In this document: piece after piece, positions 16,785-40,633 of the stretch
Layout of the letters: each line of letters starts with the position of its first letter
Numbering within the stretch: position 1 is the stretch's first letter
Assembly: GCA_045402695.1 (NCBI GenBank)
Contig: JAWPNA010000030.1
Location: 1-56,101, forward strand
DNA from: Acidobacteriota bacterium
GTDB taxonomy: Bacteria > Acidobacteriota > Polarisedimenticolia > JACPZX01 > DASXTC01
Length of the DNA: 56,101 bases
Reading direction: 5' to 3'
The notes under the pieces: model-generated
Databases searched by the model: none
The model's input: the letters and a program-made list of their open reading frames with translations, nothing else
Told to the model about the DNA's origin: nothing
Translations under genes and position numbers: made by a program

Positions 16785-17011
16785 CGGCGCTCCTGGTCCC
16801 GCGGCTCGACCTCCAGATGCGCGGGCCAGGCATACGTCACCAGGAGCCACATCACGACGGTGGCAGCTATACAAAACGCCGCGTGGTAGGTCAGCCCCAC
16901 GGGAAGTCCAAGGACCATGCGCGGATCATCCCAGAGCCAGAAGTCGTTGTGAAGGACGTAAAGGACAGGCAGCCCTGTCCAGGCGAGCACGCGCAGCAAG
17001 GTCTTGTTCAA
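16781..17011 (-). CDS. Small two-TM membrane protein, DUF3311-like accessory subunit of SSS symporters
   Basis: The sequence is LNKTLLRVLAWTGLPVLYVLHNDFWLWDDPRMVLGLPVGLTYHAAFCIAATVVMWLLV. The TTG start at 17011 overlaps the upstream stop (TTGA). Its position directly upstream of an SSS gene is the usual DUF3311 context. Confidence 0.6.
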   Translation of the reverse strand: MNKTLLRVLAWTGLPVLYVLHNDFWLWDDPRMVLGLPVGLTYHAAFCIAATVVMWLLVTYAWPAHLEVEPRDQERR

Positions 17012-20497: not shown

Positions 20498-21757
20498 TCA
20501 GCCCGCGAGATCCAGTGCCACCATGTCCTTCTGGTTGCGCAGGAAAAGTTTTTTTCCGGCCAGCGTGGGCATCGTCCAGGTCCGCCCCTCCAGGATCTGG
20601 GCTCTCGCCTTCTCCTTGTATCCCGCCGTCGTGGCCTCGGCCAGCGCCAGCAGCCCATCCTCGCTGAAGATGATCAGGTGGCCGTCCGCCAGCAGCAGCG
20701 ATCCTTTCTTGAAGCCCCGCTGGCTCCACTTCTCCTGCCCCGTGGCGGCGTCAACGCACTTCAGGGTCGCGTCGTCGAACCCGTAGATGTGGCCGCCGTT
20801 GAAGATCGAGGAGTTGAAATGGTTCTTCATGCTGCGGTTCTTCCACACCTCGGAGACATCGAACGTGTCGCCCGACTTCCTCACCGCGTACAACGCGCCG
20901 CCCGTGTCGTACGAGGAGGAGATGAAGACCTTGTCGGGCGGCACGAAGACCGGCATCGCGGCGTTCACGTCGTAGGAGGTCTTCCACGGCACGCTCCACA
21001 GCACCTTTCCATCGGCCGGAGCCACCGAGACGAGCGAAGAGCCCGCGAACGAGAGAATCTGCCGGACGCCCTGGATCTCCACCCCCAGAGGCGTCGAATA
21101 GCCGGGCCGGTCGGTGTAGGCGGTCCAGCGGGTTTCGCCCGTCTTCTTGTCGAGCGCCACGAGAGATTTGCCGGGGCCGCCTCCCGCGTCCATCAGCAAG
21201 AGGGCTCCCTCCACCACCGGAGACGTGGAGATGCCCCATTGCGGAACGCGGGCGCCGAAGGCGGCTTTCAGGTCCTTCTCCCAGACCTTCTCGCCCGTGG
21301 CCGTCCTGGCCGCGACGAGCATCCCCTGCGCGCCGAGGCCGTACACCAGGTCGCCATCCACCGTGGGGGTCGAGCGTGGGCCGTCACCCATGTCGTCCGA
21401 GCGCGTGGCGTCCACTTTCAGCCGCCAGATCTGCTTGCCATCCTCGGTGCCATAGCAGCCGAGAGCTTCATCGCCGGCGAGCGAGTACATCGTGTAAAGC
21501 CTGTTGCCCACGACGGACATGCCTGAGTAGCCGCCTCCGAGCGGCACTTTCCAGAGCACCTTCGGGCCGGCCTCAGGCCAGGTCTTCAGCAGTCCGGTTT
21601 CCGCGGAGACGCCGTCACTGGCCGGGCCGCGGTACTGGGGCCAGCCCGACTTGCCGGCGTCGGCGGCGGTTGCGGGAGGCGCCGCTGCGGCCGCGACGGC
21701 CACTGCGGTCATGACGATCGCGATCCGAAAGAGACGGGGGGCTTCGATGGGTCGCAT
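20498..21757 (-). CDS. Exported PQQ-like (BamB-like) beta-propeller repeat protein, paralogue P1
   Basis: An N-terminal signal or anchor is followed by GWPQYRGPASDGVSAETGL. Repeated blade motifs are present (G.LY.., DG...W). It is collinear with P6 (34120-35385). Confidence 0.85.
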   Translation of the reverse strand: MRPIEAPRLFRIAIVMTAVAVAAAAAPPATAADAGKSGWPQYRGPASDGVSAETGLLKTWPEAGPKVLWKVPLGGGYSGMSVVGNRLYTMYSLAGDEALGCYGTEDGKQIWRLKVDATRSDDMGDGPRSTPTVDGDLVYGLGAQGMLVAARTATGEKVWEKDLKAAFGARVPQWGISTSPVVEGALLLMDAGGGPGKSLVALDKKTGETRWTAYTDRPGYSTPLGVEIQGVRQILSFAGSSLVSVAPADGKVLWSVPWKTSYDVNAAMPVFVPPDKVFISSSYDTGGALYAVRKSGDTFDVSEVWKNRSMKNHFNSSIFNGGHIYGFDDATLKCVDAATGQEKWSQRGFKKGSLLLADGHLIIFSEDGLLALAEATTAGYKEKARAQILEGRTWTMPTLAGKKLFLRNQKDMVALDLAG

Positions 21758-21783
21758 GACAACCTCTTGTCTGGCGCCGGAGC

Positions 21784-21804
21784 CCGCGTCATCGGACGAC
21801 GCGG
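21784..21804 (-). other. Intra-operon stem-loop in the only sizeable internal gap of the gene train, flanked by a 9-bp direct repeat
   Basis: CCGCGTC (21784-21790), 7-nt loop, GACGCGG (21798-21804). GGCGCCGGA occurs at 21773-21781 and again at 21808-21816. Confidence 0.3.
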
Positions 21805-21835
21805 CGAGGCGCCGGAAATCGCCGGGTTTACCTTC

Positions 21836-23161
21836 TTACGTGTACCGCGCGTTGCGGTATTCGGTCTCGTAGAACTCGGGCAGCAGGCTGTCCACGCGAA
21901 GGAGCCCCTCACGCGTCAGATCCACTTGCCCCTCATTGACGCGGAGCATCCCGGTCTCCCGGAGGCGCTCGAACGCGGGGGCGAACGAGCTCAGGATCTC
22001 CACGCCGAACTTGTCCTTGAAGTAGTCGGTCCGGATCCGCCCCAGCTTGAGCTGAAGGATCATCTCCCTCAGAGGGCGCTGGGAAGGACTCGGCTTGAAC
22101 GCGCGGGCGAGGGGCAGTTCTCCCGCCTCGAGGCGGCCGAGGTAGTCCCCCCACTCGCTCGCGTTCTGCAAGTGGACACCGTTGAGGTGAGAGAACGAAG
22201 CCACCCCTGCGCCAAGCATGTCGCTGCCGTGCCAGACGGCGTCGCGGTAGACGAACCGGGCATCGCGGTCCTTCTTCACCATCGTGTAGGCGCTGGAGAT
22301 CTCGTAGCCGTGCGAGCCCAGCTCATTGATGGCGTGGTCGTGCCACGCTCTCCTGAGAGTCCCATCGGGAAGAGACAGCTCGCGCTTTCCGCCCAGCAGG
22401 TCCTGCGAGAACACCGTGTTGTACGGCAGCTCCATCTGGTAGATCGTGACGCTGTCGGGATCGAGCTCGATGGTCCTGCGCACCGATTCGCGCCACCTCT
22501 CCCAGCTCTCTCCCACCATGCCCGCGATCAGATCGATGTTGAGCTGATCGAAGGCGAGCGCCTTGATCCAAGGGATCACGCGGAAGATCTCGGCCGACAG
22601 GTGCGCGCGGCCGTTTTCCTTGAGGATCTCGTCGTTGAAGTTCTCCACTCCCAGGCTCAGTCGCGTGACGCCGATTTCACGGATCGCTTCCAGCTTCGCC
22701 TGGGTGAGCGTGCCCGGCTCGCACTCGAACGTGATCTCCTCGGCGCCGCTCCACGGAAGTTCGCTCTTCAGGTCTGAAGCCAGGGCCCGCAGGTCGCGTG
22801 CGCTGATGAAGGATGGCGTGCCGCCACCGAAGTAGACGAACCTGAGGGATCGGCCCGTCACGGCGGGCATCCGGCCGTAGAGGCGCACCTCCTTCGTCAG
22901 GGCGGAGAGATACGCGCGCACCTGCGCGCTGTCCATTTCCGTGTAGACCTTGTAGTAGCAGAACTTGCACCTGATGCGGCAGAAGGGAATGTGCAGGTAG
23001 AGCCCGAGGGTCGCCCCCGGCGAAGGCGGCGCGTCCAGCGCCTCCATCGCGGCGGGAACCTGATCCGCCGTCCAGGCCGAGTAGGGTGGATAGTTGGAGA
23101 TGAAGACGCTGCCGACCTCCGCCGGCTGCCCGGTCTTCACTGTCGCTTCCCCAGGCATCAT
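21836..23161 (-). CDS. HemN-like radical SAM enzyme (coproporphyrinogen-III-oxidase family; HemN/HemW/ChuW-type)
   Basis: The CxxxCxxC cluster motif HIPFCRIRCKFCYYK lies at nt 22958-22981, and the GGGTP motif (YFGGGTPSF) is present. The 441-aa length is typical of HemN-like proteins. The ATGATG start overlaps the upstream stop. Confidence 0.9.
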   Translation of the reverse strand: MMPGEATVKTGQPAEVGSVFISNYPPYSAWTADQVPAAMEALDAPPSPGATLGLYLHIPFCRIRCKFCYYKVYTEMDSAQVRAYLSALTKEVRLYGRMPAVTGRSLRFVYFGGGTPSFISARDLRALASDLKSELPWSGAEEITFECEPGTLTQAKLEAIREIGVTRLSLGVENFNDEILKENGRAHLSAEIFRVIPWIKALAFDQLNIDLIAGMVGESWERWRESVRRTIELDPDSVTIYQMELPYNTVFSQDLLGGKRELSLPDGTLRRAWHDHAINELGSHGYEISSAYTMVKKDRDARFVYRDAVWHGSDMLGAGVASFSHLNGVHLQNASEWGDYLGRLEAGELPLARAFKPSPSQRPLREMILQLKLGRIRTDYFKDKFGVEILSSFAPAFERLRETGMLRVNEGQVDLTREGLLRVDSLLPEFYETEYRNARYT

Positions 23162-24303
23162 TTCGCTCCGAACGCGTACATCACGCCATCCGTGGTTCCG
23201 ATCAGCAGGCGGCCCGCGGCCACGGCGGGAGAGGCGGTGATCGAGGAGCCGGTCTCGAACCGCCAGAGAAGCTCCCCCGTCGTCAGGTTCAGGGCCATGA
23301 TGTCGCCGCCTGTCGTGGCGGTGAAGACCCGCTCACCCACGATGACGGGGGAGGAGTCGACCTTCGCGCGCGCCGAGTAGATCCAGAGGGATCTGCCGGT
23401 CGCGGCGTCGAGGGCGTGCACCATCTTGTCGCGGCCGCCCACCACGACGATCGACCCGGACACGGCCGCCGAGGAGTAGTAGGGGAACTTCCTCTCCGGG
23501 TGCTCGTAGCGCCAGACGACTTTCGGCGTTTCGAGATCGATGCCCAGCACTTCGTTCTCGAACGTGCCCACGTAGGCGCGCCCACCGTCCACGGCCGGGC
23601 TGGCCCCGACGTACGATCCGAGCTCCAGCTTCTTGAGCTCCGCGCCGTCCCTGGCGCGCACCACGCGCAGATATCCGTCGCATCCCGCCGAGACGATGAC
23701 GGGCTCTCGAGAATCGCCGGCGAGGGCGGGCGTCCCGTATACATAGCTGCCCGTGGCCAGCTTCCATGCGAGCTTGCCGTCCGATACCGACAGCGCGTAG
23801 AGATTGTTGTCGTTGGATCCGAAGATGACGTTGCCCGAGGCGACCGTGGCCGACGAGACGATCGCGGCATCGGCCTGGAAGACGAAGCGGCGCTTGCCGT
23901 CCCGCACGTTTACCGCGTGAAAGACCCCTTTCTCGTCGCCGAAGTACACGGTGTCGTCGAAGATCGATGGGGAGGACTTGATGGGGGCGCCGCCCTCGTA
24001 TGTCCACTTCCGCTCACCGGAGCCAAGCGCCACGCAGTAGAGGTGCCCATCGAGTGATCCGAACAAGACCGAGCCCTGCCGCACGGCCGCGGTGGACTCG
24101 ATGTCCCCTCCGGCCTGGAATGTCCAGAGCCGATCCAGGCTGCGAGGCAGATCGCCGCGCGCCACACCCGTGAGGTGCGTGTCGCCGCGGAAGATGGGCC
24201 ACTCCTCGGCGGCAGGCTGTCCCGCGGGCCGGTTCACGCTTGCTGTCCCCAGCAGGAACATGAGGGCGAGCGCCGCGGCCATCATATTAGTAAGCCGACT
24301 CAT
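23158..24303 (-). CDS. Exported PQQ-like (BamB-like) beta-propeller repeat protein, paralogue P2
   Basis: Signal peptide MSRLTNMMAAALALMFLLGTASV, then EEWPIFRGDTHLTG. Regular ~40-aa blades are present (DGHLYCVALGSGERKW, NNLYALSVSDGKLAW, DKMVHALDAATGRSLW, GDIMALNLTTGELLW). Confidence 0.85.
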   Translation of the reverse strand: MSRLTNMMAAALALMFLLGTASVNRPAGQPAAEEWPIFRGDTHLTGVARGDLPRSLDRLWTFQAGGDIESTAAVRQGSVLFGSLDGHLYCVALGSGERKWTYEGGAPIKSSPSIFDDTVYFGDEKGVFHAVNVRDGKRRFVFQADAAIVSSATVASGNVIFGSNDNNLYALSVSDGKLAWKLATGSYVYGTPALAGDSREPVIVSAGCDGYLRVVRARDGAELKKLELGSYVGASPAVDGGRAYVGTFENEVLGIDLETPKVVWRYEHPERKFPYYSSAAVSGSIVVVGGRDKMVHALDAATGRSLWIYSARAKVDSSPVIVGERVFTATTGGDIMALNLTTGELLWRFETGSSITASPAVAAGRLLIGTTDGVMYAFGAK

Positions 24304-25486
24304 ACAGCGTCCTCAGATCCCGCTCGGCCACGGGCCGCGGGTTGAACTCGGCTGTCCACTGCTGGGCGGCCTCCCCCGCGAGCCGCGCAAGCGCCTCTTC
24401 GGGGACCCCGGCGTCGCGCAGTCTCGCCGGCAGTCCGCCCAGATCCCTCATCCACGTCACTCGCTCAGCCATCCCTCCCGAGCCGCCGCTCTCATCGGCC
24501 TTCAGCAACTCCGCGTACATCCGCCCCGCGACCGGCTCGTTGTACCGGATCACGTGGGGAAGCATCAGCAGGACCGCGGCGCCGTGCGCCACGCCGTAGC
24601 CCGACGTCAGCGGGTTCGCGCAGGCATGGGCCGCGCCCAGCATCGAAGCCTCGATCGCCGCGCCCGCCAGATGCGCTCCTAGCAGCATCCGGCCGCGCGC
24701 CTCGGCATCCGCGGGACCGGTCAGGGCGGATGCGAAGGCGCTCGAGAGCAGTGACCAGGCCTGCCGCGCGAGCATCCGGGAGATCGGGTTGCCTCGGGTG
24801 CTCACGTAGCTCTCGATGGCGTGGGAGATCGCATCCAGACCGGAGACGGCGGCCAGACCGCGCGGGCAGGTGGCCGTGAGCTCCGGGTCAAGGATCACCG
24901 CGGCAAAGCGCGCCTTCTCGTCACCGCAAGCCATCTTCCGGCGCGAGCCCTCCTGCTCGATAAGGGCATACGACTGCATCTCGCTTCCCGTCCCCGCGGT
25001 GGTGGGGATGCCGATCGAACGGAGCATCGGCTTGACGGCGCGGCCGGTCCCCCAGTAATCCTCCATGCGGCCGCCGTTGGTGACGAGGAAGTTGATCCCC
25101 TTGGCGCAGTCCATGGCGCTTCCGCCCCCCAGCCCCACGATGAGGTCCATGCCCTGCCCGCGCGCGAAGGCCGCCCCCTCCTCGACGTGGCGGGTCGTCG
25201 GGTTCACGTCCACGCCGTCGAAGATCGACACGCGCAAAGATTCCGACGCGAGCGAAGCCTCGGCGCGGGCGGCGTGGCCCGCCTTGCGCACCCCTGGATC
25301 GGTCACCAGCAGGACGCGCCGGGCGTGAAGCTCCGCGGCCAGCCCCCCCAGACCGGCGAGCGTCCCCGCGCCGAAGATGACGCTCGCGCCGCCGAAGGGA
25401 GCCCTCCACAAGCCCAAGGAGCGCTCCGCGCTCAGGCACGCGGTGGCCCCCGAGGGGATCATGAACCGTCTATCCTGAGTCGCCAT
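24287..25486 (-). CDS. Iron-containing (group III) alcohol dehydrogenase
   Basis: GGGSAMDCAKG (GGGSxxD), PTTAGTGSE and the His-rich metal site HACANPLTSGYGVAHGAA are all present. Confidence 0.9.
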   Translation of the reverse strand: MATQDRRFMIPSGATACLSAERSLGLWRAPFGGASVIFGAGTLAGLGGLAAELHARRVLLVTDPGVRKAGHAARAEASLASESLRVSIFDGVDVNPTTRHVEEGAAFARGQGMDLIVGLGGGSAMDCAKGINFLVTNGGRMEDYWGTGRAVKPMLRSIGIPTTAGTGSEMQSYALIEQEGSRRKMACGDEKARFAAVILDPELTATCPRGLAAVSGLDAISHAIESYVSTRGNPISRMLARQAWSLLSSAFASALTGPADAEARGRMLLGAHLAGAAIEASMLGAAHACANPLTSGYGVAHGAAVLLMLPHVIRYNEPVAGRMYAELLKADESGGSGGMAERVTWMRDLGGLPARLRDAGVPEEALARLAGEAAQQWTAEFNPRPVAERDLRTLYESAY

Positions 25487-25495
25487 GCGATGACC

Positions 25496-26926
25496 TCACG
25501 CCGCCGGGGCGGTCTGCACCGCCCGCTGCCGGTACAGGTGCTCGAAGAGGTTTCCTTCGTGGGGCTGATCCCATGACACCCGGCAGGTGGGGATCTCTCC
25601 CAGGTTGAGCCGGTCGATCGTGGGACAATCCAGCAGCTCGACCACGAAGTCCTGGTCCCGGGTCAGCGCGGTGGCCACCAGCGTCGGGCCGATCCGGGCC
25701 GCCATCTCACACTGGTTCACCTGCACCACCGTGGCGAATGGGAACAGGAATTCGCAGCCCGCCAGTGGATGTTCCGGATCCTCGCACCAGACCAGCGTCG
25801 GCCTCAGGAACGTGCACCCATCCACCTGCACGACCCTCTCCGCGTCGCGCGCGCGCGCCGTGAGGTCCTCCGCCCCCGGCACCCTCAGCAATCGATCGAT
25901 GTGCTCCGAGATCGCGATCGCCTGCCGCCTGTCCGTGAAGGCCGCGAGCGACGCGGCAGGATCATTGAGGGGCCGCGGTTCGATCGCCGCCAACCGGCCG
26001 GCCAGAGCCTCGGCGATCTCGCGGCCGTGCCCCGCGGTCCACACCCCTGAAGCGTTGAGGCAGGATCTGCCGCCGTTCTCGGCGATCGATGTGACCATCA
26101 GATCCAGGTGGCCCCTATATGAGGCCGCCGCGTCTTCATCCAGAATCACCTTGCTCCATCCCGGGCCGTGGAGCTGCACACGCGGGTCGTCCTGCCACGC
26201 CCGCAGCGTGCCCGCGTCGCCGAACAGCATCGAGCGACCGCACCGCAGCAGGATCTCGTTGGCGCCCGAATGATCGCTCGGATAGAGACTGAACGCCTGA
26301 GGCGGCGCACCCGCGGCCATCAGCGCCCGCGCGATGCGCAGAGGCGTCCACGGCTCCTGGCGTCCCGGCTTCAGGACCAGCGGCATCTTGAGAGGGAAGG
26401 CGGGCACCCAGAGCGAGTGCACGCCGGGCGAGTTGGAAGGAAGCACCGCGCCGAGAGCCTCCGTCTGCCCGATGTAGGAGACGCCGCGATCCGCCTCCGT
26501 CCCCCATCCGCGGTCCAGGATCGAGAGAGGAAGGCCGCGCGTCCAGCCTGCAAGCACCCGTCGCATTTCGTGCAGCACGAAGCGGATCTTCTCCATGTTG
26601 GCGCGGCAGAGTGCCAGCGGCATCCCCGTCGTGGAGGACAGATGATCGAGGTATTGCGCGGGAGAGTGCGACGTGGCGCCGTCCACCGGGAGATCGCTCT
26701 GCGAGAACATATAAGCCGCCTTCCCGCAGATCGCGATGAGATCCTCCGTCTCGCGCCGTCTCAGGATCCCGCGGTTGCGACCGGCCTGGAGGAGATCCAT
26801 GGCGATCAGGCCTCGATTGGCCTGGCTCACCTCGGCCACTGTCTCTCCGGTGCGCGCGTCCTTCAGGCGGAAGAGATCGAGGCTGCGGTATGGTCGGCCG
26901 GCGCGCAGGACGGGGACGTGGAGCAT
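25496..26926 (-). CDS. Aldehyde-dehydrogenase-superfamily protein, possibly an acylating/thioester-reducing (LuxC-like) type
   Basis: The ALDH core VLPSNSPGVHSLWVPAFPLKMPLVLKPGRQEP and the catalytic-Cys context ENGGRSCLNASGVW are present. I place the start at MLHVPVLRAG (ATG 26926-26924), which overlaps the upstream stop as TGATG. Confidence 0.8.
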   Translation of the reverse strand: MLHVPVLRAGRPYRSLDLFRLKDARTGETVAEVSQANRGLIAMDLLQAGRNRGILRRRETEDLIAICGKAAYMFSQSDLPVDGATSHSPAQYLDHLSSTTGMPLALCRANMEKIRFVLHEMRRVLAGWTRGLPLSILDRGWGTEADRGVSYIGQTEALGAVLPSNSPGVHSLWVPAFPLKMPLVLKPGRQEPWTPLRIARALMAAGAPPQAFSLYPSDHSGANEILLRCGRSMLFGDAGTLRAWQDDPRVQLHGPGWSKVILDEDAAASYRGHLDLMVTSIAENGGRSCLNASGVWTAGHGREIAEALAGRLAAIEPRPLNDPAASLAAFTDRRQAIAISEHIDRLLRVPGAEDLTARARDAERVVQVDGCTFLRPTLVWCEDPEHPLAGCEFLFPFATVVQVNQCEMAARIGPTLVATALTRDQDFVVELLDCPTIDRLNLGEIPTCRVSWDQPHEGNLFEHLYRQRAVQTAPAA

Positions 26927-28023
26927 CAGTAGACTCCCACTACGACGCTTTCCTGAAGAGAAGTGAGCAGCCTCAGGTTCGACACTCCGTCCCACGGAAA
27001 CCGCTCGCAGGGACGGGCGCGCTCCCCCTCGTCTCTCTCGAGGAAGCGCGGCATGAAGAAGTCCCGCGTCAGCGTGGTCAGCATCACGCGGCCGGTCTCG
27101 CCGTAGGCGACGGGAGTCTCGGGATCGTCGGGCCGCACCAGCTCGAAGACGGCACGCGGGGAGGGCGGGTAGTAGGTGATCGCGTAATCATCGGCCGGAT
27201 CGAACGGCTTGGGGCAGGCCAGCCCCATCAGCGTGTTGCCGTAGGTCGGAACGAAGTCGATGCCCGGCGCCAGCTCCTCGCGCACGAAGCGGTGAAACTG
27301 CGCCGTCATCTCCGTCCCGCCGCAGAAGATGCCGGTGATCCCCGCGTTTTTAAGGGAGATCCTCTCGCACAGAGCCTCCAGCAGCTTCGGCGTGGTGAAG
27401 AGGCACCGGATCGAGTCGTGTCCCTTGAGGACCTTCAGCGCCTGATCGATCACGTGGCTCTTGTAGGCCTGAAGCTCCCTGAAGCGATGGTCCTTCACGA
27501 TCTGATTGACCCAGCGCGGGTCCAGGTCCACGAAGAAGGCGATGCCTCCCCGGTGCTGGGCGAGATGCTCGATCGAGAGGCGCAGCCGCCGCGGCCCCGT
27601 CGGGCCGAGCATCAGCCAGTCGGCGCCGCGGGGAAAGGCGGTGGCGGAAAGCGTCTCGCTGAACATCTCATAGTCAATCTGGAAGTCCTCGATGTTGAGC
27701 CGTGTCTTGGGCATGCCCGTGGAGCCTCCCGTCTCGAAGGCGAACATCGGCTTGCCCGCGAGACCCGCCGGCAGCCACCGGCGCGCCGGGCCCCCGCGCA
27801 GCCACTCGTCCTGGAAGTGGCCCAGCAGCTTCAGGTCGTCGTAGCCGCGGATCCTCTCTTTCGGATCGAAGCCGAGCGATGCCGCGAACTCCAGCCAGAA
27901 GGGGGAGCCGGTCTGACGACTGAAGTGCCAGCTCACCATCTCACGCACGTGCGCATCGAGCCGCGCGCGCGCGGCGGCGTGCTCCTGCTCCAGCGCCGCT
28001 GACTGTGTCTCCCGCATGGTCAT
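26926..28023 (-). CDS. Adenylate-forming enzyme of the PaaK / coenzyme-F390-synthetase / LuxE-like (ANL) group
   Basis: The P-loop-like motif FETGGSTGMPK corresponds to SSGTTGKP in PaaK. The ~365-aa size fits. Start options are GTG 28062 (overlaps the P3 stop as TAGTG), ATG 28023 or ATG 28017. The last is 6 nt after GGGAG and is best supported. Confidence 0.75.
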   Translation of the reverse strand: MTMRETQSAALEQEHAAARARLDAHVREMVSWHFSRQTGSPFWLEFAASLGFDPKERIRGYDDLKLLGHFQDEWLRGGPARRWLPAGLAGKPMFAFETGGSTGMPKTRLNIEDFQIDYEMFSETLSATAFPRGADWLMLGPTGPRRLRLSIEHLAQHRGGIAFFVDLDPRWVNQIVKDHRFRELQAYKSHVIDQALKVLKGHDSIRCLFTTPKLLEALCERISLKNAGITGIFCGGTEMTAQFHRFVREELAPGIDFVPTYGNTLMGLACPKPFDPADDYAITYYPPSPRAVFELVRPDDPETPVAYGETGRVMLTTLTRDFFMPRFLERDEGERARPCERFPWDGVSNLRLLTSLQESVVVGVY

Positions 28024-28061
28024 CTCCCGCTGGTCGTCCCCCCGGGGGGCGCCGGCACGCA

Positions 28062-29654
28062 CTACGGTCCGGCCGGATGCCTGGCCGCCGCGATACCGCC
28101 GGCGAGGGCGAACAGCTTCGTGCGGCTGACGATGTACAAGACACCGTCCTTGGCCGTGGGGGTCGTGTAGACGGCATTGCCCATGTTGATCTCCGCGATC
28201 AACTCAGGCTTCTTGCCCTCCCTGAAGACCGCCACGTCGCCGTCCTCATCGCCGATGTAGACCTTTCCGTCCGCCACGAAGGGTGACCCCCAGACCGCGG
28301 CGGCCAGGTCGTGCGTCCATTGGTGCTGTCCCGTGCGCGCGTCCAGGCAGTAGAGAAAGCCGTTGAGATCGGCCGCGTACAGAAGCCCGTCGTGGATCGC
28401 CACCGATGAAATCGTGCGGTGGAAGTCCTGATTGCCCCGATGCCACACCATTGCCGTCTGGGTGACGTCGCCTGTCTTCGTGGCGTCGATGGCCCACAGG
28501 TGTCCGATTCCCTCGCCGTGCTCCGGGTCCTGGCCCACGCCGACGAACACCTTGTCCTCCCAGATGACCGGTGTCGCGATGATCTCGTTTCTCGTCCCGC
28601 GCCCGCCCAGGACGTACACAGCGTCCTTCGGGTTGGCGTCGAACTTCCAGATCTGCTTGCCCGTCTCGGGCTCGAAGGAGTAGACCCAGCCGTCTCCGCC
28701 GGGAATGATCACCTGCGGTTTCCCCTTGATGACACCGTATGCTGGGTTGGACCAGGAGCCGTGCAGGATGTGCTCGCGCGGGGAGGCGTCCTCCCACACG
28801 AGCTTGCCGGTGTTCTTGTCGAGCGCGATGAAGCTGGGCGCGTCGGGCGACGGGATGTTCACGTGCCCTTCGTCAACACCGTTACCCGTCACCGTGAACA
28901 GCAAGTCGCCGGCCACGAGAGGGCTGCCCGCGGCGAGGTTGTGCGGGAAGACCGCGAGATTCCCCATCATGTCGAACTTCCAGACGATGTCCTCGTCGAC
29001 CTCGCTGGCGTCGGACTCCTGCGTGAAGGGACCATCGTTTTCGCCGTCCATGAACCCTTCGGTGTCGGCGCAGATCACCTCGGCGCGGTTGGAGACGTAG
29101 TAGATGCGATCGCCGTGCACGTACGGCGTCGAGCAGACCCCCTGCATCGGCCAGTCGTTCACCATTCCCGCCGGCAGCTTGGGATGGGCGGCCTGCCAGA
29201 GGAATTTGCCGTCCGCCGCGCTGAAGGCCATGACCACGCCGCGATCGCTCTTGAGCTTCGGGTTGCGCAGCCCTTCGTTGTTGGTGCCGACGAAGACCTT
29301 GCCGCGGTACACCACGGGTCCCGCGTAGGTCTGCGATCCCAGCGCGGCAACCCACTTGATGTTCAGGCCGGTGGCCGGGTCCCACATCTGAGGAAGCCCC
29401 TTCTCGTCGGACACCTGGTTGCGCGAGAGGGTCTGGCCGAAAAGGGCTGGAGCCCCAGGGGCGCCGGCCGCGCCGGACGTCCCTGCCGGGGGCTTGCCGG
29501 CGTCCGCCGGTTTCGCCTGGCCCGCAGGGGCCGCGGGCATTGTCTGCGCCGCGGGGCCGGTCTGCTTGGTCTGCGCCGTGGCGCGCGCGCCCGCCGCGAG
29601 AGCCACCGCGGCGAGGATGAGGCCGCAGGTCGCGAACAACCATCGCTTCGTCAT
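28062..29654 (-). CDS. Exported PQQ-like beta-propeller repeat protein, paralogue P3, with Ala/Pro/Gly-rich linker
   Basis: Signal peptide MTKRWLFATCGLILAAVALAAGARA, then the low-complexity stretch TAQTKQTGPAAQTMPAAPAGQAKPADAGKPPAGTSGAAGAPGAP, then propeller blades. The ATG overlaps the P4 stop (ATGA at 29651-29654). Confidence 0.85.
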   Translation of the reverse strand: MTKRWLFATCGLILAAVALAAGARATAQTKQTGPAAQTMPAAPAGQAKPADAGKPPAGTSGAAGAPGAPALFGQTLSRNQVSDEKGLPQMWDPATGLNIKWVAALGSQTYAGPVVYRGKVFVGTNNEGLRNPKLKSDRGVVMAFSAADGKFLWQAAHPKLPAGMVNDWPMQGVCSTPYVHGDRIYYVSNRAEVICADTEGFMDGENDGPFTQESDASEVDEDIVWKFDMMGNLAVFPHNLAAGSPLVAGDLLFTVTGNGVDEGHVNIPSPDAPSFIALDKNTGKLVWEDASPREHILHGSWSNPAYGVIKGKPQVIIPGGDGWVYSFEPETGKQIWKFDANPKDAVYVLGGRGTRNEIIATPVIWEDKVFVGVGQDPEHGEGIGHLWAIDATKTGDVTQTAMVWHRGNQDFHRTISSVAIHDGLLYAADLNGFLYCLDARTGQHQWTHDLAAAVWGSPFVADGKVYIGDEDGDVAVFREGKKPELIAEINMGNAVYTTPTAKDGVLYIVSRTKLFALAGGIAAARHPAGP

Positions 29655-31876: not shown

Positions 31877-32051
31877 GCCATCCTTATCGCTCCAGAGGGT
31901 GTCCGGTGGAACAGAAGTCCCCCATTCTAAAGCACGGACAGGCCAGGGTGCACGTTGTCATTGCTGACGGGGCGGTGTCGGCCCAGGATAGTACGCCGGA
32001 ACGGCAGGCGGGTTATCCCCGGAATGGGCGGACCGCAGTTTTTACAAGGTT

Positions 32052-32618
32052 TTACATCCTCCGGGGCGAAGCAACGGGAGCGGGCCCGGCGGACGGGGAG
32101 ATCACGCCCGCGGCGGGGGAGGGGGCCTCGGGCTTGTAGAGCGACACGAGACATCCACCTGCCGCCGCCAGTGCGATGCCCAGCAGGAACTGCCAGCGCA
32201 ATGTCCTGAGTCCTCCGGCCGGGGGATGCATCGCGAAGGCGGTGAGCGCGTTGACGATCGGGGCCCCCGCGAACACGATCGACATGACCACTCCGGGCGA
32301 GCCCTTGGCCCCGAATGCCAGCAGAACGCAGAAGGCGCCCGCCGCTCCGACCAACCCCGCCAGCAGCGACCAGGCGACGCCGCGCGCGGGAAAGTGCCAC
32401 GAGGAGCCGCGGAGGATCAACAGCGCCAGGGGCGCCAGCACGGCGGTAAGAAAGTAGGCGATGCCGACGAACAGGAAGGCTCGGTAGCGCCCGTTGACCG
32501 GATCGGCCATCGAGGTCTGGCCGGCGTGCAGAAAGACGCCGTACAGCCCCCAGGTCAAGACGGTCATAAGGGCGAACACCAGCCAGTGAATGCCCGTCTC
32601 CGCCGCGCCCCCTGACAT
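32052..32618 (-). CDS. Small polytopic inner-membrane protein (EamA/DMT-like half-transporter?)
   Basis: About 5 predicted TM helices (HWLVFALMTVLTWGLYGVFL, FLFVGIAYFLTAVLAPLALLIL, and others). ATG at 32618 is preceded by a GGAGG RBS with 6-nt spacing. The longer ORF start at 32660 was rejected. Confidence 0.7.
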   Translation of the reverse strand: MSGGAAETGIHWLVFALMTVLTWGLYGVFLHAGQTSMADPVNGRYRAFLFVGIAYFLTAVLAPLALLILRGSSWHFPARGVAWSLLAGLVGAAGAFCVLLAFGAKGSPGVVMSIVFAGAPIVNALTAFAMHPPAGGLRTLRWQFLLGIALAAAGGCLVSLYKPEAPSPAAGVISPSAGPAPVASPRRM

Positions 32619-32721
32619 CTTCTGCCTCCATTCGTTGCGTGAGCTGCGACAGGATAACATGGGCAGCCGCTCGCTCCTCGTGCATCATCGGCGCGCGACT
32701 CTTCTGCGGGGAGGCACGCCA

Positions 32722-32745
32722 GATGGACGGCCCCTCGATGGACGG
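32722..32745. repeat. 9-bp direct repeat GATGGACGG x2 (15-bp period) in the divergent control region of the propeller locus
   Basis: GATGGACGG occurs at 32722-32730 and again at 32737-32745, inside the 181-nt gap between the divergent starts at 32618 (-) and 32800 (+). Confidence 0.6.
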
Positions 32746-32799
32746 TCATACGAGAATGTCGTAGAGTTGCGCGTCCCCCGGGGAGAAAAGCGAGTGGCG

Positions 32800-34053
32800 A
32801 TGAGGCTTGTCAGGAGATCGGCCGCGCGGGCGTGCGGCCTCCTGCTCTTGGGCGGGGCGCTGGTCCGCACGGCGCGAGCCGCCGACTGGCCGCAGTGGCG
32901 CGGCCCGGGCCGCGACGGCGTGGGCTTACAGCTGCGGGCGCCCAAGAGCTGGCCGGAGAAGCTGGCACGCGCCTGGTCGGTGCCGGTGGGCGAGGGGCAC
33001 GGCAGCCCCGTGCTGGTGGGTGACCGCGTCTTCCTGCACACGCGGGAGGGCGAGCAGGAGGTGGCGCGCTCCGTGCAGCTTGCCGACGGACGCACGCTGT
33101 GGCGCGTGTCGTGGCCAGTCACGTACGAGATGAATTCCGCCGCGGCCTCTCACGGCAAGGGACCCAAGGCCACTCCGACGTTGATCGGAGGCACGCTCTA
33201 CATCTTCAGCATCACCGGGCTGCTCTCGGCCTTCGATCCGGAGTCGGGGGCCCTGAGGTGGCGCAGGGACTTCTCCACCGAGTTCAAGAAGACATCTCCG
33301 CTGTTCGGGGCGGCCTCATCGCCGCTCGCCGATCGCGACCTGGTCATCCTCCACACCGGCGGCCACCACAACGGCAGCCTCACGGCCTTCGACGCGCGCA
33401 CGGGAGACGTCCGATGGAGTTTGAAAGGAGACGGACCCGGCTACGCCTCTCCCATCGTGACGGAGCTGGGCGGCCGGCGGCAGGTGATCACGCAGACCGA
33501 TCAGCGGATCATCGGCGTGGCCGCCGACACCGGGCGCTTGATCTGGAGCCTCCCCTTCACGACTCCATATGATCAGAACAGCGTCACGGCTCTGGTGTCC
33601 GAGAACCTGCTCATCACTTCGGGGATTGAGCAGGGGGTGCACGCCTGGAAGCTCGAGCCCGAGGGCGAGCAGCTCGTGCCCCGCGAAGCCTGGAACCTGC
33701 AGGAAGCCTCCTTCTATCTCAGCTCGCCCGTCATCGCCTCGGGGCTAATGTTCGGGTTCTCCCACATGAAGCGAGGACAGTTCGTGTGCGTCGATCCGAA
33801 GACGGGACAGCTCCTCTGGGCCAGCAAGGGGCGCGAGGGGGAAAACGCGGCTCTGGTCGTCGCCGGCGATCTCGTTCTGGCGCTGACCGACAGCGCCGAG
33901 CTGATCGTCCTGCCGGCCGGCGCGAAGCAGTTCGCGCCCGCGGCCCGCTACACGGTGGCTGACAGCCCGACCTGGGCGCACCCGGTGGTCACGCCGCGCG
34001 GCATCCTGATCAAGGACAAGACCCATCTGAGCCTGTGGAGCTGGCCGTCCTGA
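32800..34053 (+). CDS. Exported PQQ-like beta-propeller repeat protein, paralogue P5
   Basis: Signal peptide MRLVRRSAARACGLLLLGGALVRTARA, then ADWPQWRGPGRDGV. A GGAGA motif lies upstream of the ATG at 32800. The 70-aa N-terminal ORF extension was rejected. Confidence 0.85.
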   Translation: MRLVRRSAARACGLLLLGGALVRTARAADWPQWRGPGRDGVGLQLRAPKSWPEKLARAWSVPVGEGHGSPVLVGDRVFLHTREGEQEVARSVQLADGRTLWRVSWPVTYEMNSAAASHGKGPKATPTLIGGTLYIFSITGLLSAFDPESGALRWRRDFSTEFKKTSPLFGAASSPLADRDLVILHTGGHHNGSLTAFDARTGDVRWSLKGDGPGYASPIVTELGGRRQVITQTDQRIIGVAADTGRLIWSLPFTTPYDQNSVTALVSENLLITSGIEQGVHAWKLEPEGEQLVPREAWNLQEASFYLSSPVIASGLMFGFSHMKRGQFVCVDPKTGQLLWASKGREGENAALVVAGDLVLALTDSAELIVLPAGAKQFAPAARYTVADSPTWAHPVVTPRGILIKDKTHLSLWSWPS

Positions 34054-34119
34054 ATCCGGGCCGCCTTCGCCGCGTATGAATACGAGCTTCCGGCCTCGAC
34101 AGAACTGGGAGGATTGACG

Positions 34120-35385
34120 ATGCACTGCCTGACAGGCGCACTGCGCGCCGCCATCGTGGCCGCCGGGGTTGTCTGCCTGACGGCTCCGTCCGCCCATGCC
34201 CGTGACGCGAGTCTGGACTGGCCGCAGTACCGGGGCGCGCGGCGCGACGGAGTATCGGCTGCCTCGGGGCTTCTGAGGAGCTGGCCCGACAGCGGTCCGT
34301 CCGTGATGTGGCGCCGCGCGATCGGCGACGGGGTCTCCGGTATCGCTGTGTCGGCTGACCGTCTGTACACGATGGACTCCGACCCCAACTCCGAGATCGC
34401 GGTCTGCCTCAAGACCGGCACGGGCGAGGAGATCTGGAGGACGCCGCTGGGCCCGCGGTTCGTGGAGGAGTTCGGCGATGGCCCGCGCGCCACGCCTGCC
34501 GTGGATGGAGACCTGGTCTTCGACCTCTCTTCGTATGGGAAGCTCTTCGCGCTGAAGGTCGCCGACGGATCCAAGGTCTGGGAGGTCGATCTGGCGGCGA
34601 CGTTCGGCGGGCGCGTGCCCCGGCGCGGCGCCGGTTCGTCCCCGCTCGTGGACGGAGATCTGGTGATCGTCGAGGGCGGCGGAAGCGAGGGGAAGGCCAT
34701 CCAGGCTCTGGACAGAAAGACCGGGCAGACCCGGTGGACATCGCAGAACGGAGGCGCCGGCTATGCTTCGGCGATCGCCGCGACGATCAACGGCGTGCAT
34801 CAGGTGATCTTCGCGCGGACCGGCAGCGGCGAGATCCTCGCGCTTTCCCTGACGGGCGAGCTCCTCTGGAAACACTCCTGGACCCCCGGCGTCATCGCGA
34901 TGCCGCTGTTCGTGCCGCCGAACATGATCTTCGCATCGGCCGCGGACGACGTCGGCTCCATTCTCATCGAGGCAGTGACGCAGGACGGCAAACCCATGGC
35001 GAAGCAGGTATGGTCCAGCCGCTCGATGAGGAACCACTTCAACTCCTCCCTGCTGGTGGGCGGCCACATCTACGGATTCGACAATGCCACGCTGAAGTGC
35101 ATCTCGGTGGAAACCGGAGAACAGAAGTGGGTGCAGCGCGGCTTCGGCAAGGGATCGCTCATCGCCGCCGCCGGCCTGCTTATCATCCTGGGCGATCAGG
35201 GCGTCCTTGCCCTGGCCGATGCCTCCCCGGAGGGGTACCGCGAGCGCGGACGATTCCAGGCATTGAGCGGCAAGGCGTGGACCTCGCCGACGCTGGCCGG
35301 GGGGCGCCTCTACCTCCGCGATCAGGACGAGATCGTGAGTCTGGATCTCCGCTCCGGCAGGAGCGCGTCGTCAGGGATGCCGTGA
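34120..35385 (+). CDS. Exported PQQ-like beta-propeller repeat protein, paralogue P6 (close paralogue of P1)
   Basis: A GGGAGG RBS at 34104-34109 precedes the ATG at 34120. Signal peptide MHCLTGALRAAIVAAGVVCLTAPSAHA, then DWPQYRGARRDGVS. It shares long strings with P1 (SMRNHFNSS, GGHIYGFDNATLKC, PTLAGGRLYLRDQ). Confidence 0.85.
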   Translation: MHCLTGALRAAIVAAGVVCLTAPSAHARDASLDWPQYRGARRDGVSAASGLLRSWPDSGPSVMWRRAIGDGVSGIAVSADRLYTMDSDPNSEIAVCLKTGTGEEIWRTPLGPRFVEEFGDGPRATPAVDGDLVFDLSSYGKLFALKVADGSKVWEVDLAATFGGRVPRRGAGSSPLVDGDLVIVEGGGSEGKAIQALDRKTGQTRWTSQNGGAGYASAIAATINGVHQVIFARTGSGEILALSLTGELLWKHSWTPGVIAMPLFVPPNMIFASAADDVGSILIEAVTQDGKPMAKQVWSSRSMRNHFNSSLLVGGHIYGFDNATLKCISVETGEQKWVQRGFGKGSLIAAAGLLIILGDQGVLALADASPEGYRERGRFQALSGKAWTSPTLAGGRLYLRDQDEIVSLDLRSGRSASSGMP

Positions 35386-36572
35386 TGCGCGCGGTGCGTC
35401 GCACCCTGACCGCTGCGGTGCTGCTGGTCGTGGTTCCCGCTGCCGCTGCCCGCGCGGCGTCCCCGATGAGCGTCGAGGACGTGCTGCGCCGCCACGTCAT
35501 CGCGCGCGGCGGAGAGGAGACGTGGCGTTCGGTGAGATCGCTCGAGATCTCCGGCACCCAGACGACGTTCAGCACGCCCAGCCCCTTCACTCTCTACCGC
35601 GCACGCCCGAACCTGTACCGCCTCGAGCAGACGATTATGAGACGCCCGGTGGTGGAGGTGTTTGACGGCTCGCGGGCCTGGTGGATCAACGGCCTCATGG
35701 GAAACTCCTGGCCTTTGCCGGTGCCCCTTTCCCGCTCCGGCTATATCCGCAAGGAATCCGATTTCGACACGCCACTGATCGGACACGCGCTCGAACACGG
35801 GGGCGGCGAACTCAAGGTGGAGCTGGCCGGGCTCGAGGAGTTCGAGGGAGCAAGAGCATACAAGCTGAAGGTGACCGCCAAGGGGAACGGTGGAGAGGGC
35901 GGCGAGGAGACATGGTATCTCGACCAGACCACTTTCCTGGAGATCGCGCGGATCTCGCCGACCGAGGACTTCGGTCAGGAGTTGGAGAAACGGTCGTACT
36001 TCTCGGACTTCCGCGCGGTGGGGGGCCTGACGATGCCTCACCGGATCGAGATGGAATTCGGCACCCGCAACGTGGTGCTCGAAATCAAGATGGTGAAGAT
36101 CAATCCCGACCTGTCCGCCGATCGGTTCCGCATGCCGCTCCCGGAGGGGATGGCTATCCTGAATCCGCTCGCGGGAGAATGGGCGGTCAAGGTCGAGACA
36201 CAGCCTGATCCGCGCGCGCCCTGGGTCGAGAAGACGGCCACAGCCTCGATCAAGCTGCTGCTGGACGGCGGCATGATCGAAGAGCGGCTCACCTACACGG
36301 ACCAGGGACTCCCGGTCGAGCTGGTGCGAGCCTGGTCATACGACCAGTTCCAGAAGCTGTACCGCGTCACCCAGGCCGACAACTACACGTTCCACCAGAA
36401 CGTGCTCGAAGGGACGCTCGCCGAGGGGCGCCTGACGGCAAGCAACGAGAAGAGCGGCACGACGTGGAAGACGCCCGATGAGACCTTTCACGCCCGCGTG
36501 ATCCTGCACGACATCCAGAAAGACACCTTCAAAGTGGACTCCGAGGTCTCCACCGATGGCGCCAAGACCTAG
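35385..36572 (+). CDS. Exported two-domain protein: N-terminal LolA/lipoprotein-sorting-like domain (suspected) plus C-terminal DUF1579-like domain
   Basis: The ATG overlaps the P6 stop (TGATG at 35383-35387). Signal peptide MRAVRRTLTAAVLLVVVPAAAARA. The N-terminal half (VEDVLRRHVIARGGEETWRSVRSLEISG...AYKLKVT...WYLDQTTFL) resembles outer-membrane lipoprotein-sorting (LolA-fold) proteins from memory. The C-terminal half (LAGEWAVKVE...LLLDGGMIEERL) resembles DUF1579. Confidence 0.65.
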   Translation: MRAVRRTLTAAVLLVVVPAAAARAASPMSVEDVLRRHVIARGGEETWRSVRSLEISGTQTTFSTPSPFTLYRARPNLYRLEQTIMRRPVVEVFDGSRAWWINGLMGNSWPLPVPLSRSGYIRKESDFDTPLIGHALEHGGGELKVELAGLEEFEGARAYKLKVTAKGNGGEGGEETWYLDQTTFLEIARISPTEDFGQELEKRSYFSDFRAVGGLTMPHRIEMEFGTRNVVLEIKMVKINPDLSADRFRMPLPEGMAILNPLAGEWAVKVETQPDPRAPWVEKTATASIKLLLDGGMIEERLTYTDQGLPVELVRAWSYDQFQKLYRVTQADNYTFHQNVLEGTLAEGRLTASNEKSGTTWKTPDETFHARVILHDIQKDTFKVDSEVSTDGAKT

Positions 36573-39062: not shown

Positions 39063-39079
39063 GGTGACAATATTTACGT

Positions 39080-39109
39080 TGACACTGCGAGAATGTCAAG
39101 TACATTATG
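39080..39109 (+). promoter_or_regulatory. Candidate sigma70-type promoter for the decarboxylase operon (TTGACA-N18-CATTAT)
   Basis: A consensus -35 hexamer TTGACA lies at 39080-39085 and a -10-like CATTAT at 39104-39109. A second TTGACA lies on the opposite strand (TGTCAA at 39094-39099), so the two -35-like hexamers form an inverted repeat. This is prediction only. Confidence 0.3.
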
Positions 39110-39130
39110 CGTACAATCATTGACTGGCCC

Positions 39131-39152: not shown

Positions 39153-39174
39153 GCGCACGGCTGGGAGGCACCCC

Positions 39175-40599: not shown

Positions 40600-40633
40600 A
40601 GGATGGAGCATGTCGCATGACGGAGGAAGATGA

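Follow-up and report, generated by a model that had tools for sequence, protein, structure and literature searches.

A 56,101-nucleotide contig from an Acidobacteriota bacterium (JAWPNA010000030.1; G+C content about 67%), analysed over its whole length and called the window here, carries what appears from its sequence to be a widespread, modular and uncharacterised operon, in which distinct families of BamB-like β-propellers each keep a fixed partner. The operon is a variation on two themes that are already known, the propellers of the PQQ_2 family and orphan halogenase/adenylase gene clusters. Six propellers, P1 to P6, are encoded in the window:

P1: 20498-21757, minus strand; exported 419-aa, eight-bladed propeller (PQQ_2, 117 bits).
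P2: 23158-24303, minus strand; exported 381-aa, highly regular eight-bladed propeller (Beta-prop_ACSF4, 199 bits; PQQ_2, 131 bits).
P3: 28062-29654, minus strand; exported 530-aa propeller (PQQ_2, 99 bits) whose N-terminal motif deviates from that of the others.
P4: 29651-31876, minus strand; exported 741-aa protein with an eight-bladed PQQ_2 propeller, an Ig-like β-sandwich and a C-terminal jelly-roll (175 bits).
P5: 32800-34053, plus strand; exported 417-aa propeller, divergent from the operon (PQQ_2, 114 bits).
P6: 34120-35385, plus strand; exported 421-aa propeller whose nearest paralogue is P1 (PQQ_2, 104 bits).

The six open reading frames (ORFs) have the coordinates, strands and lengths that an original prediction, made on this DNA, had given for them, and all six belong to PQQ_2 (PF13360), scoring 99 to 175 bits against a gathering cut-off of 27.6; P2 additionally passes the threshold of Beta-prop_ACSF4, the former PQQ_3 (199 against 133 bits). 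A hidden Markov model built from the six proteins matches those six ORFs only, and there is thus no seventh propeller of this kind in the window. The predicted export of all six is upheld by their signal-peptide-like N-termini, which were judged by eye, together with the retention of a hydrophobic N-terminus in the orthologues. A tryptophan-containing motif had been described directly behind the signal peptide of five propellers, and a six-frame regular-expression scan indeed finds exactly five matches to W[PA].[WYF]RG in 56 kb, each directly after the N-terminal hydrophobic segment of P1, P2, P4, P5 or P6. The degenerate version that had been noted in P3 is also present (LFGQTLSRNQVS), preceded by a low-complexity Ala/Pro/Gly-rich linker; the P3 orthologues have MFGGTPSRNMVS at this site and no long linker. 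When the pattern is relaxed to W[PASTL].[WYF][RG]G, it occurs within the first 90 residues of 347 of the 360 retrieved homologues of P1, P4 and P6, and the motif is thus a general trait of these families and not special to this locus. The genes interleaved with the propellers encode cytoplasmic-type enzymes, as had also been stated; what had not been recognised is that these enzymes, a TonB-dependent receptor (TBDR) and an FtsX gene form one conserved unit.

That unit was followed in other genomes with its aldehyde dehydrogenase (ALDH)-like protein as query, which retrieved 38 related loci, one genome per species. They come mostly from metagenome-assembled genomes (MAGs) of Thermoanaerobaculia, Polarisedimenticolia, Holophagae and other Acidobacteriota, with two from Poribacteria, one from Latescibacterota and one from a planctomycete, and most are from soil or sediment MAGs, not sponges. 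Mapping with tblastn places the genes in about 25 of the 38 loci in the same order: P4, P3, a stand-alone adenylase (ANL), the ALDH-like protein, an iron-containing alcohol dehydrogenase (Fe-ADH), P2, a radical S-adenosylmethionine (SAM) enzyme, P1, the TBDR, a flavin-dependent halogenase-like enzyme and a sodium:solute symporter (SSF). This order is found mostly in Thermoanaerobaculia and Polarisedimenticolia, is partial in Poribacteria and Latescibacterota, and is represented in the planctomycete by the adenylase and ALDH-like pair only. The nearest relative, a Polarisedimenticolia MAG, is 63-85% identical. Positional orthologues are 48-76% identical for P1, 42-64% for P2, 60-84% for P3 (directly after P4), 48-71% for P4 (about 20 loci) and 54-89% for the adenylase (31 loci).

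Within this order each propeller family has its own constant neighbour. P2 lies between the Fe-ADH and radical SAM genes in 30 loci, including the minimal loci L020, L025, L026 and L029, and is the only propeller kept in every version of the core. P1 and the TBDR occur together in 18 loci, with P1 directly upstream of the TBDR, and no locus clearly has P1 alone. Among the operon loci P4 is always followed by P3, and the P4-P3 pair also stands alone in L040 (a KSB1 genome) and L047. The complete six-propeller layout, including the divergent P5, P6 and a DUF1579 gene, recurs in L044 at about 64% identity, accompanied by a sulfatase gene (P5 62%, in the same position; P6 65%; DUF1579 protein 50%), and in L046 a P6 homologue located away from the operon is still followed by a DUF1579 gene (41%). 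It had been considered at the start that homologous loci might have a single propeller; relatives usually carry several, four being the commonest number and six being found in one relative, although in the minimal cores P2 is the sole propeller.

Have the six propellers arisen by dense local amplification of one exported fold, as was first proposed? They are paralogous at the level of the superfamily, but not as close kin. BLASTP gives 48% identity for P1 and P6 (E 1e-130), 27% for P1 and P5 (E 1e-57), 26% for P5 and P6 (E 1e-42), and 21-29% for the remaining pairs (E 1e-4 to 1e-29). In the database, over 120 clusters at 53% identity or above are nearer to P1 than any partner in the window is, and the same holds for P4 and for P6; for P4 there are more than 120 full-length homologues, and the P6 family alone comprises more than 120 clusters at 53-85% identity, all closer to P6 than P1 is. 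P2 matches 73,527 representative clusters (50% identity) at E ≤1e-3. A neighbour-joining tree was built from 93 sequences. In it P1, P2, P3 and P4 fall, each with its positional orthologues, into four monophyletic groups, P6 is the sister of the P1 clade, and P5 is the sister of P1 plus P6. The six propellers are therefore anciently separated, distinct subfamilies, and by alignment and tree they are no closer to one another than to other PQQ_2 proteins, except within the P1/P6/P5 clade; this is in part the outcome that had been named beforehand as refuting the proposal. Because P1, P4 and P6 have closer relatives elsewhere, because the P1 to P4 groups are each monophyletic, and because every family has a fixed gene partner of its own, the case for local amplification falls away.

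We accordingly give almost no credence to the idea that all six descend from one exported propeller gene that was recently duplicated in place and then diversified. The 48% identity of P1 and P6 and the grouping of P5 with both would be expected from it, and true tandem duplication of a propeller does occur in the family: L011 has a recent one of P1 (15025-17683, upstream of the TBDR), the copies being 54% and 50% identical to P1 of the window. Yet the other pairs share too little, closer orthologues of P1, P4 and P6 exist in other genomes, those of P6 outranking P1, and the positional orthologues of P1 to P4 are kept across classes and phyla. Duplication appears to be reflected only by the P1/P6/P5 lineage, where it is old. 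The clustering instead represents the gathering of old, distinct components into a conserved operon, and not duplication in place.

The operon itself is a minus-strand run from 32660 to 9526, about 23 kb, in which the spacing between genes ranges from -178 to +175 bp with many overlaps of 1-4 bp; P3 and P4 overlap by 4 bp, and P2 overlaps both flanking genes. Since the spacing is tight and mostly overlapping, we regard the run as one operon of 17 genes. P5, P6 and the DUF1579 gene form a divergent unit, the start of the DUF1579 gene overlapping the stop codon of P6. Besides the propellers, the two units contain the following genes:

32052-32660, minus strand: first gene of the operon, for a small membrane protein (about 190 aa, 4-5 transmembrane segments) (frame supported by third-codon-position G+C; 81% identical homologue in L044).
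26926-28062, minus strand: EhpF-type stand-alone adenylase (ANL, without the C-terminal domain), 378 aa, start uncertain (PDB 3hgu/3l2k).
25496-26995, minus strand: ALDH-superfamily protein, putative reductase partner of the adenylase, start uncertain (Pfam Aldedh).
24287-25486, minus strand: iron-containing (group III) alcohol dehydrogenase (Fe-ADH, 157 bits; ADH_Fe_C, 125 bits).
21836-23161, minus strand: class C (HemN-like) radical SAM enzyme, 441 aa (Radical_SAM and HemN_C).
18296-20482, minus strand: TBDR of the siderophore subfamily (plug and barrel, TIGR01783).
17008-18321, minus strand: flavin-dependent halogenase-like FAD enzyme, 437 aa (Trp_halogenase, 98 bits).
16781-17011, minus strand: DUF3311 small membrane protein, the symporter partner, start approximate (38.7 bits against a cut-off of 30).
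15321-16784, minus strand: sodium:solute symporter SSF (143 bits); the ORF extends to 16874, with the likely ATG near 16784.
14005-15324, minus strand: GT4 glycosyltransferase (Glycos_transf_1, 99 bits).
13578-14036, minus strand: 4HBT-fold thioesterase (4HBT and 4HBT_2 matches).
12885-13568, minus strand: ABC transporter ATPase (ABC_tran, 118 bits).
9526-13062, minus strand: large FtsX-domain (MacB-type) permease, whose start is probably downstream of the listed GTG (FtsX, two stretches).
35385-36572, plus strand: exported 395-aa DUF1579 protein, weakly LolA-like (DUF1579, 43 bits against a cut-off of 25.2).

The 3' half of the operon is also found elsewhere, although not in every locus. No locus that extends as far as the SSF position lacks this gene, minimal ones included, and it is preceded by a DUF3311 gene in L042 and L043; the GT4 gene follows SSF in L009, L025, L026 and L042; the 4HBT gene has the same position in L042 and L043; and an ABC ATPase gene follows the cluster in L020, L025, L026 and L042, with an FtsX homologue behind it in L020 and L042. 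The fullest downstream extension is that of L042, which reads DUF3311-SSF-GT4-membrane protein-4HBT-ABC-FtsX. Its membrane protein is a 70% homologue, between GT4 and 4HBT, of the one that opens the operon in the window and that lies upstream of P4 in L044. At the other end of the range are the minimal cores of the Holophagae loci L025 and L026, which consist of ANL-ALDH-FeADH-P2-rSAM-SSF-GT4-ABC (rSAM being the radical SAM gene) and have unrelated genes at both ends. The halogenase-like gene is accessory, absent from L042 and from the minimal loci.

Several loci have further genes. The poribacterial L036 includes among its core genes a PhyH-type dioxygenase, a thiamine diphosphate-dependent enzyme and a creatininase-family protein (6058-6933, 8192-9943 and 11882-12628), which hint at a 2-keto-acid or aldehyde branch of the pathway. 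An AAA_21 ATPase and DUF4276 pair is inserted between P4 and P3 both in L036 (2568-4552) and in L048, a metagenome contig (12323-14263); this OLD/AbiEii-like insert is probably mobile or defence-related. In L041 an IS200-type Y1 transposase gene (14975-15406) separates the adenylase gene from the ALDH-like gene in an otherwise intact operon. L003 (DASROJ010000342.1) bears the label 'Patescibacteria group bacterium', yet its operon is 64-89% identical to that of the window; the contig is probably acidobacterial and was binned wrongly.

Some other candidates in the window were discarded. The ORF at 31927-32688 on the minus strand (253 aa, Arg-rich) was rejected as a gene, as it is in the wrong frame over the membrane-protein gene at 32052-32660. 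A cluster for a ribosomally synthesised and post-translationally modified peptide was also rejected: the gaps in the operon are 78 bp or less, save one of 175 bp, and leave no space for a precursor gene. Across the whole window there was no Rfam match at gathering thresholds, and riboswitches therefore give no pointer to a ligand.

To understand what kind of protein the propellers are, AlphaFold2 models of P1 and P4 were made from 36-sequence alignments. P1 is modelled as an eight-bladed propeller (pLDDT 91.4) and P4 as three all-beta domains, a propeller, an Ig-like sandwich and a jelly-roll (pLDDT 86.9). In Foldseek searches of the PDB, BamB ranks first for both, with E values of about 1e-17 to 1e-19 and TM-scores of 0.72-0.80 normalised to BamB (for P1, E 3e-19 and TM 0.75); tetrathionate hydrolase comes next for both, and PQQ (pyrroloquinoline quinone) alcohol dehydrogenases reach TM-scores of 0.39-0.44 normalised to target length. 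The propeller dominated the matches of the full P4 model, in which the C-terminal domains went unmatched, and the Ig-like and C-terminal domains alone gave nothing significant in Pfam. By profile, P2 matches the designed eight-blade Cake/Bagel proteins, the archaeal protein 3hxj and BamB, and it is an almost idealised repeat without irregular pocket-forming insertions.

The six propellers are BamB-like in fold, yet by membership they are neither BamB nor PQQ dehydrogenases. None reaches the BamB equivalogs TIGR03300 and NF008351 (cut-offs 285 and 423 bits), P2 scoring 156 bits and the others 47-83, and a lipobox, [LVI][ASTVI][GAS]C, is absent from the first 45 residues of all six, whose orthologues have no conserved Cys there. 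The statement that they are not classical PQQ dehydrogenases was correct. Their scores with the PQQ dehydrogenase model TIGR03075 are 27-76 bits against a cut-off of 480, and only short stretches of the 595-position model PF01011 align to them. Their eight-bladed propeller domains are BamB-sized, about 350-450 residues compared with about 570-600 in PQQ dehydrogenases, and none of the six contains a vicinal Cys-Cys ('CC'). The model for acido-empty-quinoprotein group A, TIGR04528, is likewise not reached (36-68 bits against 650), and no catalytic signature of any known family was found in the propellers.

In the P1 family, 39 of the 85 positions in the D-to-A loops (46%) are at least 90% conserved, compared with 55 of 259 (21%) elsewhere (Fisher p = 2e-5). 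In the canonical propeller topology, the D-to-A loops make up the face around the central channel. Conservation of this kind argues that members of the P1 family plausibly present a dedicated surface to a ligand or partner. Could the propellers instead be periplasmic enzymes, whether cofactor-less or dependent on PQQ or a metal, that carry out late tailoring of an exported product by oxidation, coupling or hydrolysis? Pyoverdine is an example of a product matured in the periplasm. Tetrathionate hydrolase (6l8a, 7cqy) is among the best matches in both sequence and fold. The conserved polar residues R127, D215, Y219, N264, N311, H312 and K350 of P1 cluster in the D-to-A loops, on the side where propeller enzymes usually have their active site. 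P3 and P4 exceed BamB in size, are less regular than it, and contain acidic and His-rich loops that are conserved; and four families could match four steps. We nevertheless think a catalytic role unlikely: the propellers show no signature of known enzyme families and score far below the PQQ dehydrogenase cut-offs, P2 lacks pocket-forming insertions, BamB is nearer in fold than any enzyme, and where P4-P3 or P6-DUF1579 stand alone, no enzyme genes accompany them. The most plausible reading is that the propellers would serve as scaffold or binding modules.

What pathway might such modules serve? The adenylase aligns over its full length with EhpF (3hgu; E 1e-40, residues 37-378 on 25-369), which makes it an EhpF-type ANL protein. 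The ALDH-like protein matches Pfam Aldedh (E 1e-8) and aldehyde dehydrogenases in the PDB (E 2e-7), with a candidate catalytic Cys in ENGGRSCLNASG. LuxE and LuxC were rejected as labels for these two genes, being unsupported by Pfam and NCBIfam; EhpF is the supported homologue. The best NCBIfam match of the Fe-ADH is ErcA, at 258 bits below the cut-off of 550. The radical SAM enzyme scores 184 bits with HutW, 171 with STM4012 and 166 with HemN, all under the cut-offs, and its PDB matches are HemN (E 1e-31) and the NocN methyltransferase (E 5e-30); a Radical_SAM domain, a HemN_C domain and the CxxxCxxC motif CRIRCKFC identify it as a class C HemN-like enzyme. The TBDR qualifies as a siderophore receptor, with plug and barrel and a TIGR01783 score of 257 bits against 223.5, and a TonB-box-like VNVTVVGS after its signal peptide is conserved in the orthologues. 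The halogenase-like protein belongs to PF04820 (98 bits against a cut-off of 21) and has the motifs GGGPAG (GxGxxG) and WFWYIPL (WxWxIP) as well as a Lys, in FTRKHSVQF, that is a candidate for the catalytic one; its scores with CmlS (200 bits, cut-off 900) and QhpG (124 bits, cut-off 240) are both below the thresholds. Maturation of a QHNDH-type quinoprotein, which the QhpG-like match had brought to mind, was rejected on that score and on the radical SAM enzyme being HemN-like and not of the SPASM type. The DUF1579 protein has a signal-peptide-like N-terminus and a LolA_like match of 20.7 bits, below the cut-off of 30, and a PDB sequence search found no homologue of it. The membrane protein at the head of the operon has only a weak EamA match (E 0.03).

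With moderate confidence, we propose that the propellers have no catalytic role and act in the periplasm as binding or partner subunits, in the service of an orphan small-molecule pathway and the transporters that go with it. Judging from the enzyme families, the EhpF-type adenylase and the ALDH-like reductase would convert a carboxylate, probably aromatic, into an aldehyde, the Fe-ADH would reduce the aldehyde to an alcohol, and the class C radical SAM enzyme would C-methylate the product; the carbons that known enzymes of this class modify are aromatic or heteroaromatic. Tailoring could follow through the optional flavin-dependent halogenase, glycosylation by the GT4 enzyme and the thioesterase. 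The MacB-type ABC/FtsX pump might then export the product, and the TBDR and the SSF/DUF3311 symporter might take it back up. In what is the weakest step of the scheme, the propellers would bind the product, its metal complex or protein partners, and would in this way connect the transporters of the inner membrane with the receptor in the outer one. P1 would associate with the receptor, P2 would work with the core, P4 and P3 would constitute a separable heteromeric module, and P6 would pair with the weakly LolA-like DUF1579 protein.

The same transporters can be read in the opposite direction, as a locus for nutrient uptake and processing, in which the TBDR and propellers capture an external compound, for example a siderophore-like, tetrapyrrole-like or aromatic acid, SSF/DUF3311 imports it and the enzymes modify or detoxify it. 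A TBDR with a TonB box that scores above the siderophore-receptor cut-off fits this well, as do the tight coupling of P1 to the TBDR, the presence in every core of an SSF gene, SSF transporters being importers, and the fact that the best NCBIfam match of the radical SAM enzyme is the haem-degrading HutW/ChuW. That match, however, is under half of the cut-off of 400, and the cluster is conserved together with a GT4 enzyme, a thioesterase and an ABC/FtsX exporter, whose functions are anabolism or export. Reduction of an acid to an alcohol is atypical of catabolism, halogenases are typical of biosynthesis, and the minimal cores dispense with the TBDR. We find this explanation distinctly improbable.

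A further possibility is that the operon serves the synthesis and transport of a glycolipid of the envelope, namely a fatty-alcohol glycoside. The fatty alcohol would come from the thioesterase, adenylase, reductase and ADH, the GT4 enzyme would glycosylate it, the ABC/FtsX pair would extract it from the inner membrane in the manner of LolCDE or DevBCA, and its passage to the outer membrane would be in the care of the propellers and the LolA-like DUF1579 protein. The conserved downstream FtsX/ABC pair, 4HBT thioesterase and GT4 enzyme, the LolA_like match of the protein after P6 and the BamB-like propeller fold are all compatible with this, and a preprint reports matches to the glycolipid-exporter gene BrtI in similar clusters (10.64898/2026.08.03.742642). 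But the adenylase is homologous to EhpF, which points to an aromatic acid, and not to LuxE; class C radical SAM methylases, of which the NocN match is a reminder, and flavin halogenases are generally known to act mainly on aromatics; the LolA_like match is below its cut-off; and the operon's protein in the outer membrane does not export but is an importer of the plugged, TonB-dependent kind. We judge a glycolipid product very improbable.

The proposal of non-catalytic propellers in an aromatic pathway has to be set against several observations that weigh against it. Tetrathionate hydrolase is a precedent showing that cofactor-less PQQ-like propellers can be enzymes, and the conserved D-to-A loops of P1 are as compatible with catalysis as with binding. 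The localisation of the propellers depends on a by-eye assessment of their signal peptides. In Pfam the adenylase matches the AMP-binding family weakly (21 bits, below threshold), and the carboxylate could be a fatty acid instead of an aromatic acid. The ABC/FtsX genes have beside them no gene for a periplasmic adaptor or a TolC-type channel. The minimal cores have no TBDR, P1, P3 or P4, and most of the propellers are therefore accessory. Finally, P4-P3 pairs alone in unrelated contexts and the P6-DUF1579 pair away from the operon imply that the function of these propellers may be independent of the pathway.

A bolder form of the proposal, which we consider speculative and rather doubtful, is that P4-P3, P2 and P1 form, with the TBDR, the MacB-type ABC/FtsX pump and SSF/DUF3311, a previously undescribed trans-envelope apparatus dedicated to one halogenated or methylated aromatic glycoside, possibly a metallophore. 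If this were so, BamB-like propellers would replace periplasmic binding proteins or adaptors, giving PQQ_2 a new functional class, and the enrichment of PQQ-like domains in orphan clusters of Acidobacteriota, Poribacteria and Latescibacterota would be explained.

Outside the two units, the window holds a MocR-type regulator (GntR plus aminotransferase domain) divergent from a pyridoxal phosphate (PLP)-dependent decarboxylase and a Cys/Met-metabolism PLP enzyme (37677-41800); the minimal clusters of L025 and L026 have a homologue of this last enzyme immediately upstream, and a functional link may therefore exist. Two adjacent divergent genes at 42971-47006 encode proteins of about 660-700 aa, each with DUF3857 and a transglutaminase-like core. 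Four proteins are encoded in the region 1-9275: a Ser/Thr kinase with fused PD40 propeller repeats, truncated where the window begins; an S8 subtilase of 1255 aa; a DUF5946 protein; and a VWA protein that matches TIGR03436, an acidobacterial model. Like the nearest related loci, this gene content speaks for an acidobacterial origin of the DNA. At 51745-53448 on the plus strand is a 567-aa protein in which a nitroreductase-family domain is confined to the C-terminal part, and which adjoins a HAMP/HisKA sensor kinase.

Among families of exported bacterial proteins to which no function has been assigned, the PQQ_2 propellers are one of the largest. This locus gives them a defined and widely conserved context, with four subfamilies that have fixed partners (the TBDR, the enzyme core, one another and the DUF1579 protein), and their roles thereby become testable. 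The operon also stands for an orphan pathway in which a carboxylate reductase of two components is joined by a class C radical SAM enzyme, a halogenase and a glycosyltransferase. Uncultured Thermoanaerobaculia widely possess it, and a product linked to it would serve both natural-product discovery and the biology of Acidobacteriota. It occurs in part in sponge-associated phyla, which are where the preprint seeks the source of halogenated natural products.

In the literature we found no description of the four-propeller architecture, its modularity or its product, and nothing useful on PQQ-like propellers in Acidobacteria or in an EhpF/EhpG context. Among characterised proteins the closest likeness is to BamB (YfgL), which has in common with the six propellers the PQQ_2 family, the size and the eight-bladed fold. 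BamB is periplasmic and non-catalytic, and acts by binding a protein partner. The six differ from it in their scores (47-156 bits against 285 for TIGR03300), the lack of a lipobox Cys, an identity of 14-20%, and their occurrence in a metabolite operon with no bam genes in the window; P4 differs also in its added Ig-like and jelly-roll domains. The PQQ alcohol and methanol dehydrogenases (ExaA, MxaF, XoxF) are exported and have a homologous propeller repeat (profile E about 1e-15 to 1e-21), and their N-terminal W-x-x-aromatic-G strand motif is presumably analogous to the motif of the propellers. The six are set apart from them by shorter propellers, the absence of Cys-Cys, and the low TM-scores and TIGR03075 scores given above. 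The tetrathionate hydrolase of Acidithiobacillus ferrooxidans (6l8a, 7cqy), a top-ranking match, is also an eight-bladed, PQQ-like propeller of the envelope and works as an enzyme without a cofactor, but identity to it is 14-16% and its context, sulfur oxidation, is unrelated.

Two further systems resemble the locus in gene context. PedA2 is a β-propeller protein listed as part of the PedA1A2BC lanthanide ABC transporter of Pseudomonas putida (PMC12997753). As a predicted non-cytoplasmic propeller encoded beside a transport system, it is a precedent for a propeller as transporter accessory, although it accompanies an ABC importer with a substrate-binding protein. Its propeller is of a different family, the YVTN type and not PQQ_2. 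The order of adenylase and ALDH-like gene is reminiscent of EhpF and EhpG in the formation of the phenazine D-alanylgriseoluteic acid, the adenylase being a full-length EhpF homologue followed by an ALDH-like gene. Bera and co-workers are said to have proposed that EhpF and EhpG turn a carboxylate into an aldehyde via an acyl-adenylate. Unlike the Ehp system, this locus has no phenazine core genes.

Similar gene clusters are those of a 2026 preprint by Loureiro et al., in which sponge metagenomes were mined for clusters with a flavin halogenase and an adenylase ('Halo_AMP'; bioRxiv 10.64898/2026.08.03.742642). Orphan Halo_AMP clusters are reported there from Acidobacteriota, Latescibacterota and Poribacteria, with radical SAM, TonB, glycosyltransferase, thioesterase and toxin-antitoxin-like or nucleotide-binding genes, and PQQ-like domains are unusually frequent in them (10.64898/2026.08.03.742642). 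The operon described here shares those phyla and has a similar gene repertoire, and the AAA_21/DUF4276 insert of L036 and L048 fits the toxin-antitoxin observation. There are differences too: the highlighted cluster of the preprint, CC A, has P450s, which the operon does not, and the antiSMASH rule used there calls for a halogenase and an AMP-binding gene within 5 kb, whereas here the two are 8.6 kb apart and the AMP-binding match is weak (21 bits). Compared by description, the Halo_AMP clusters and this operon family probably overlap.

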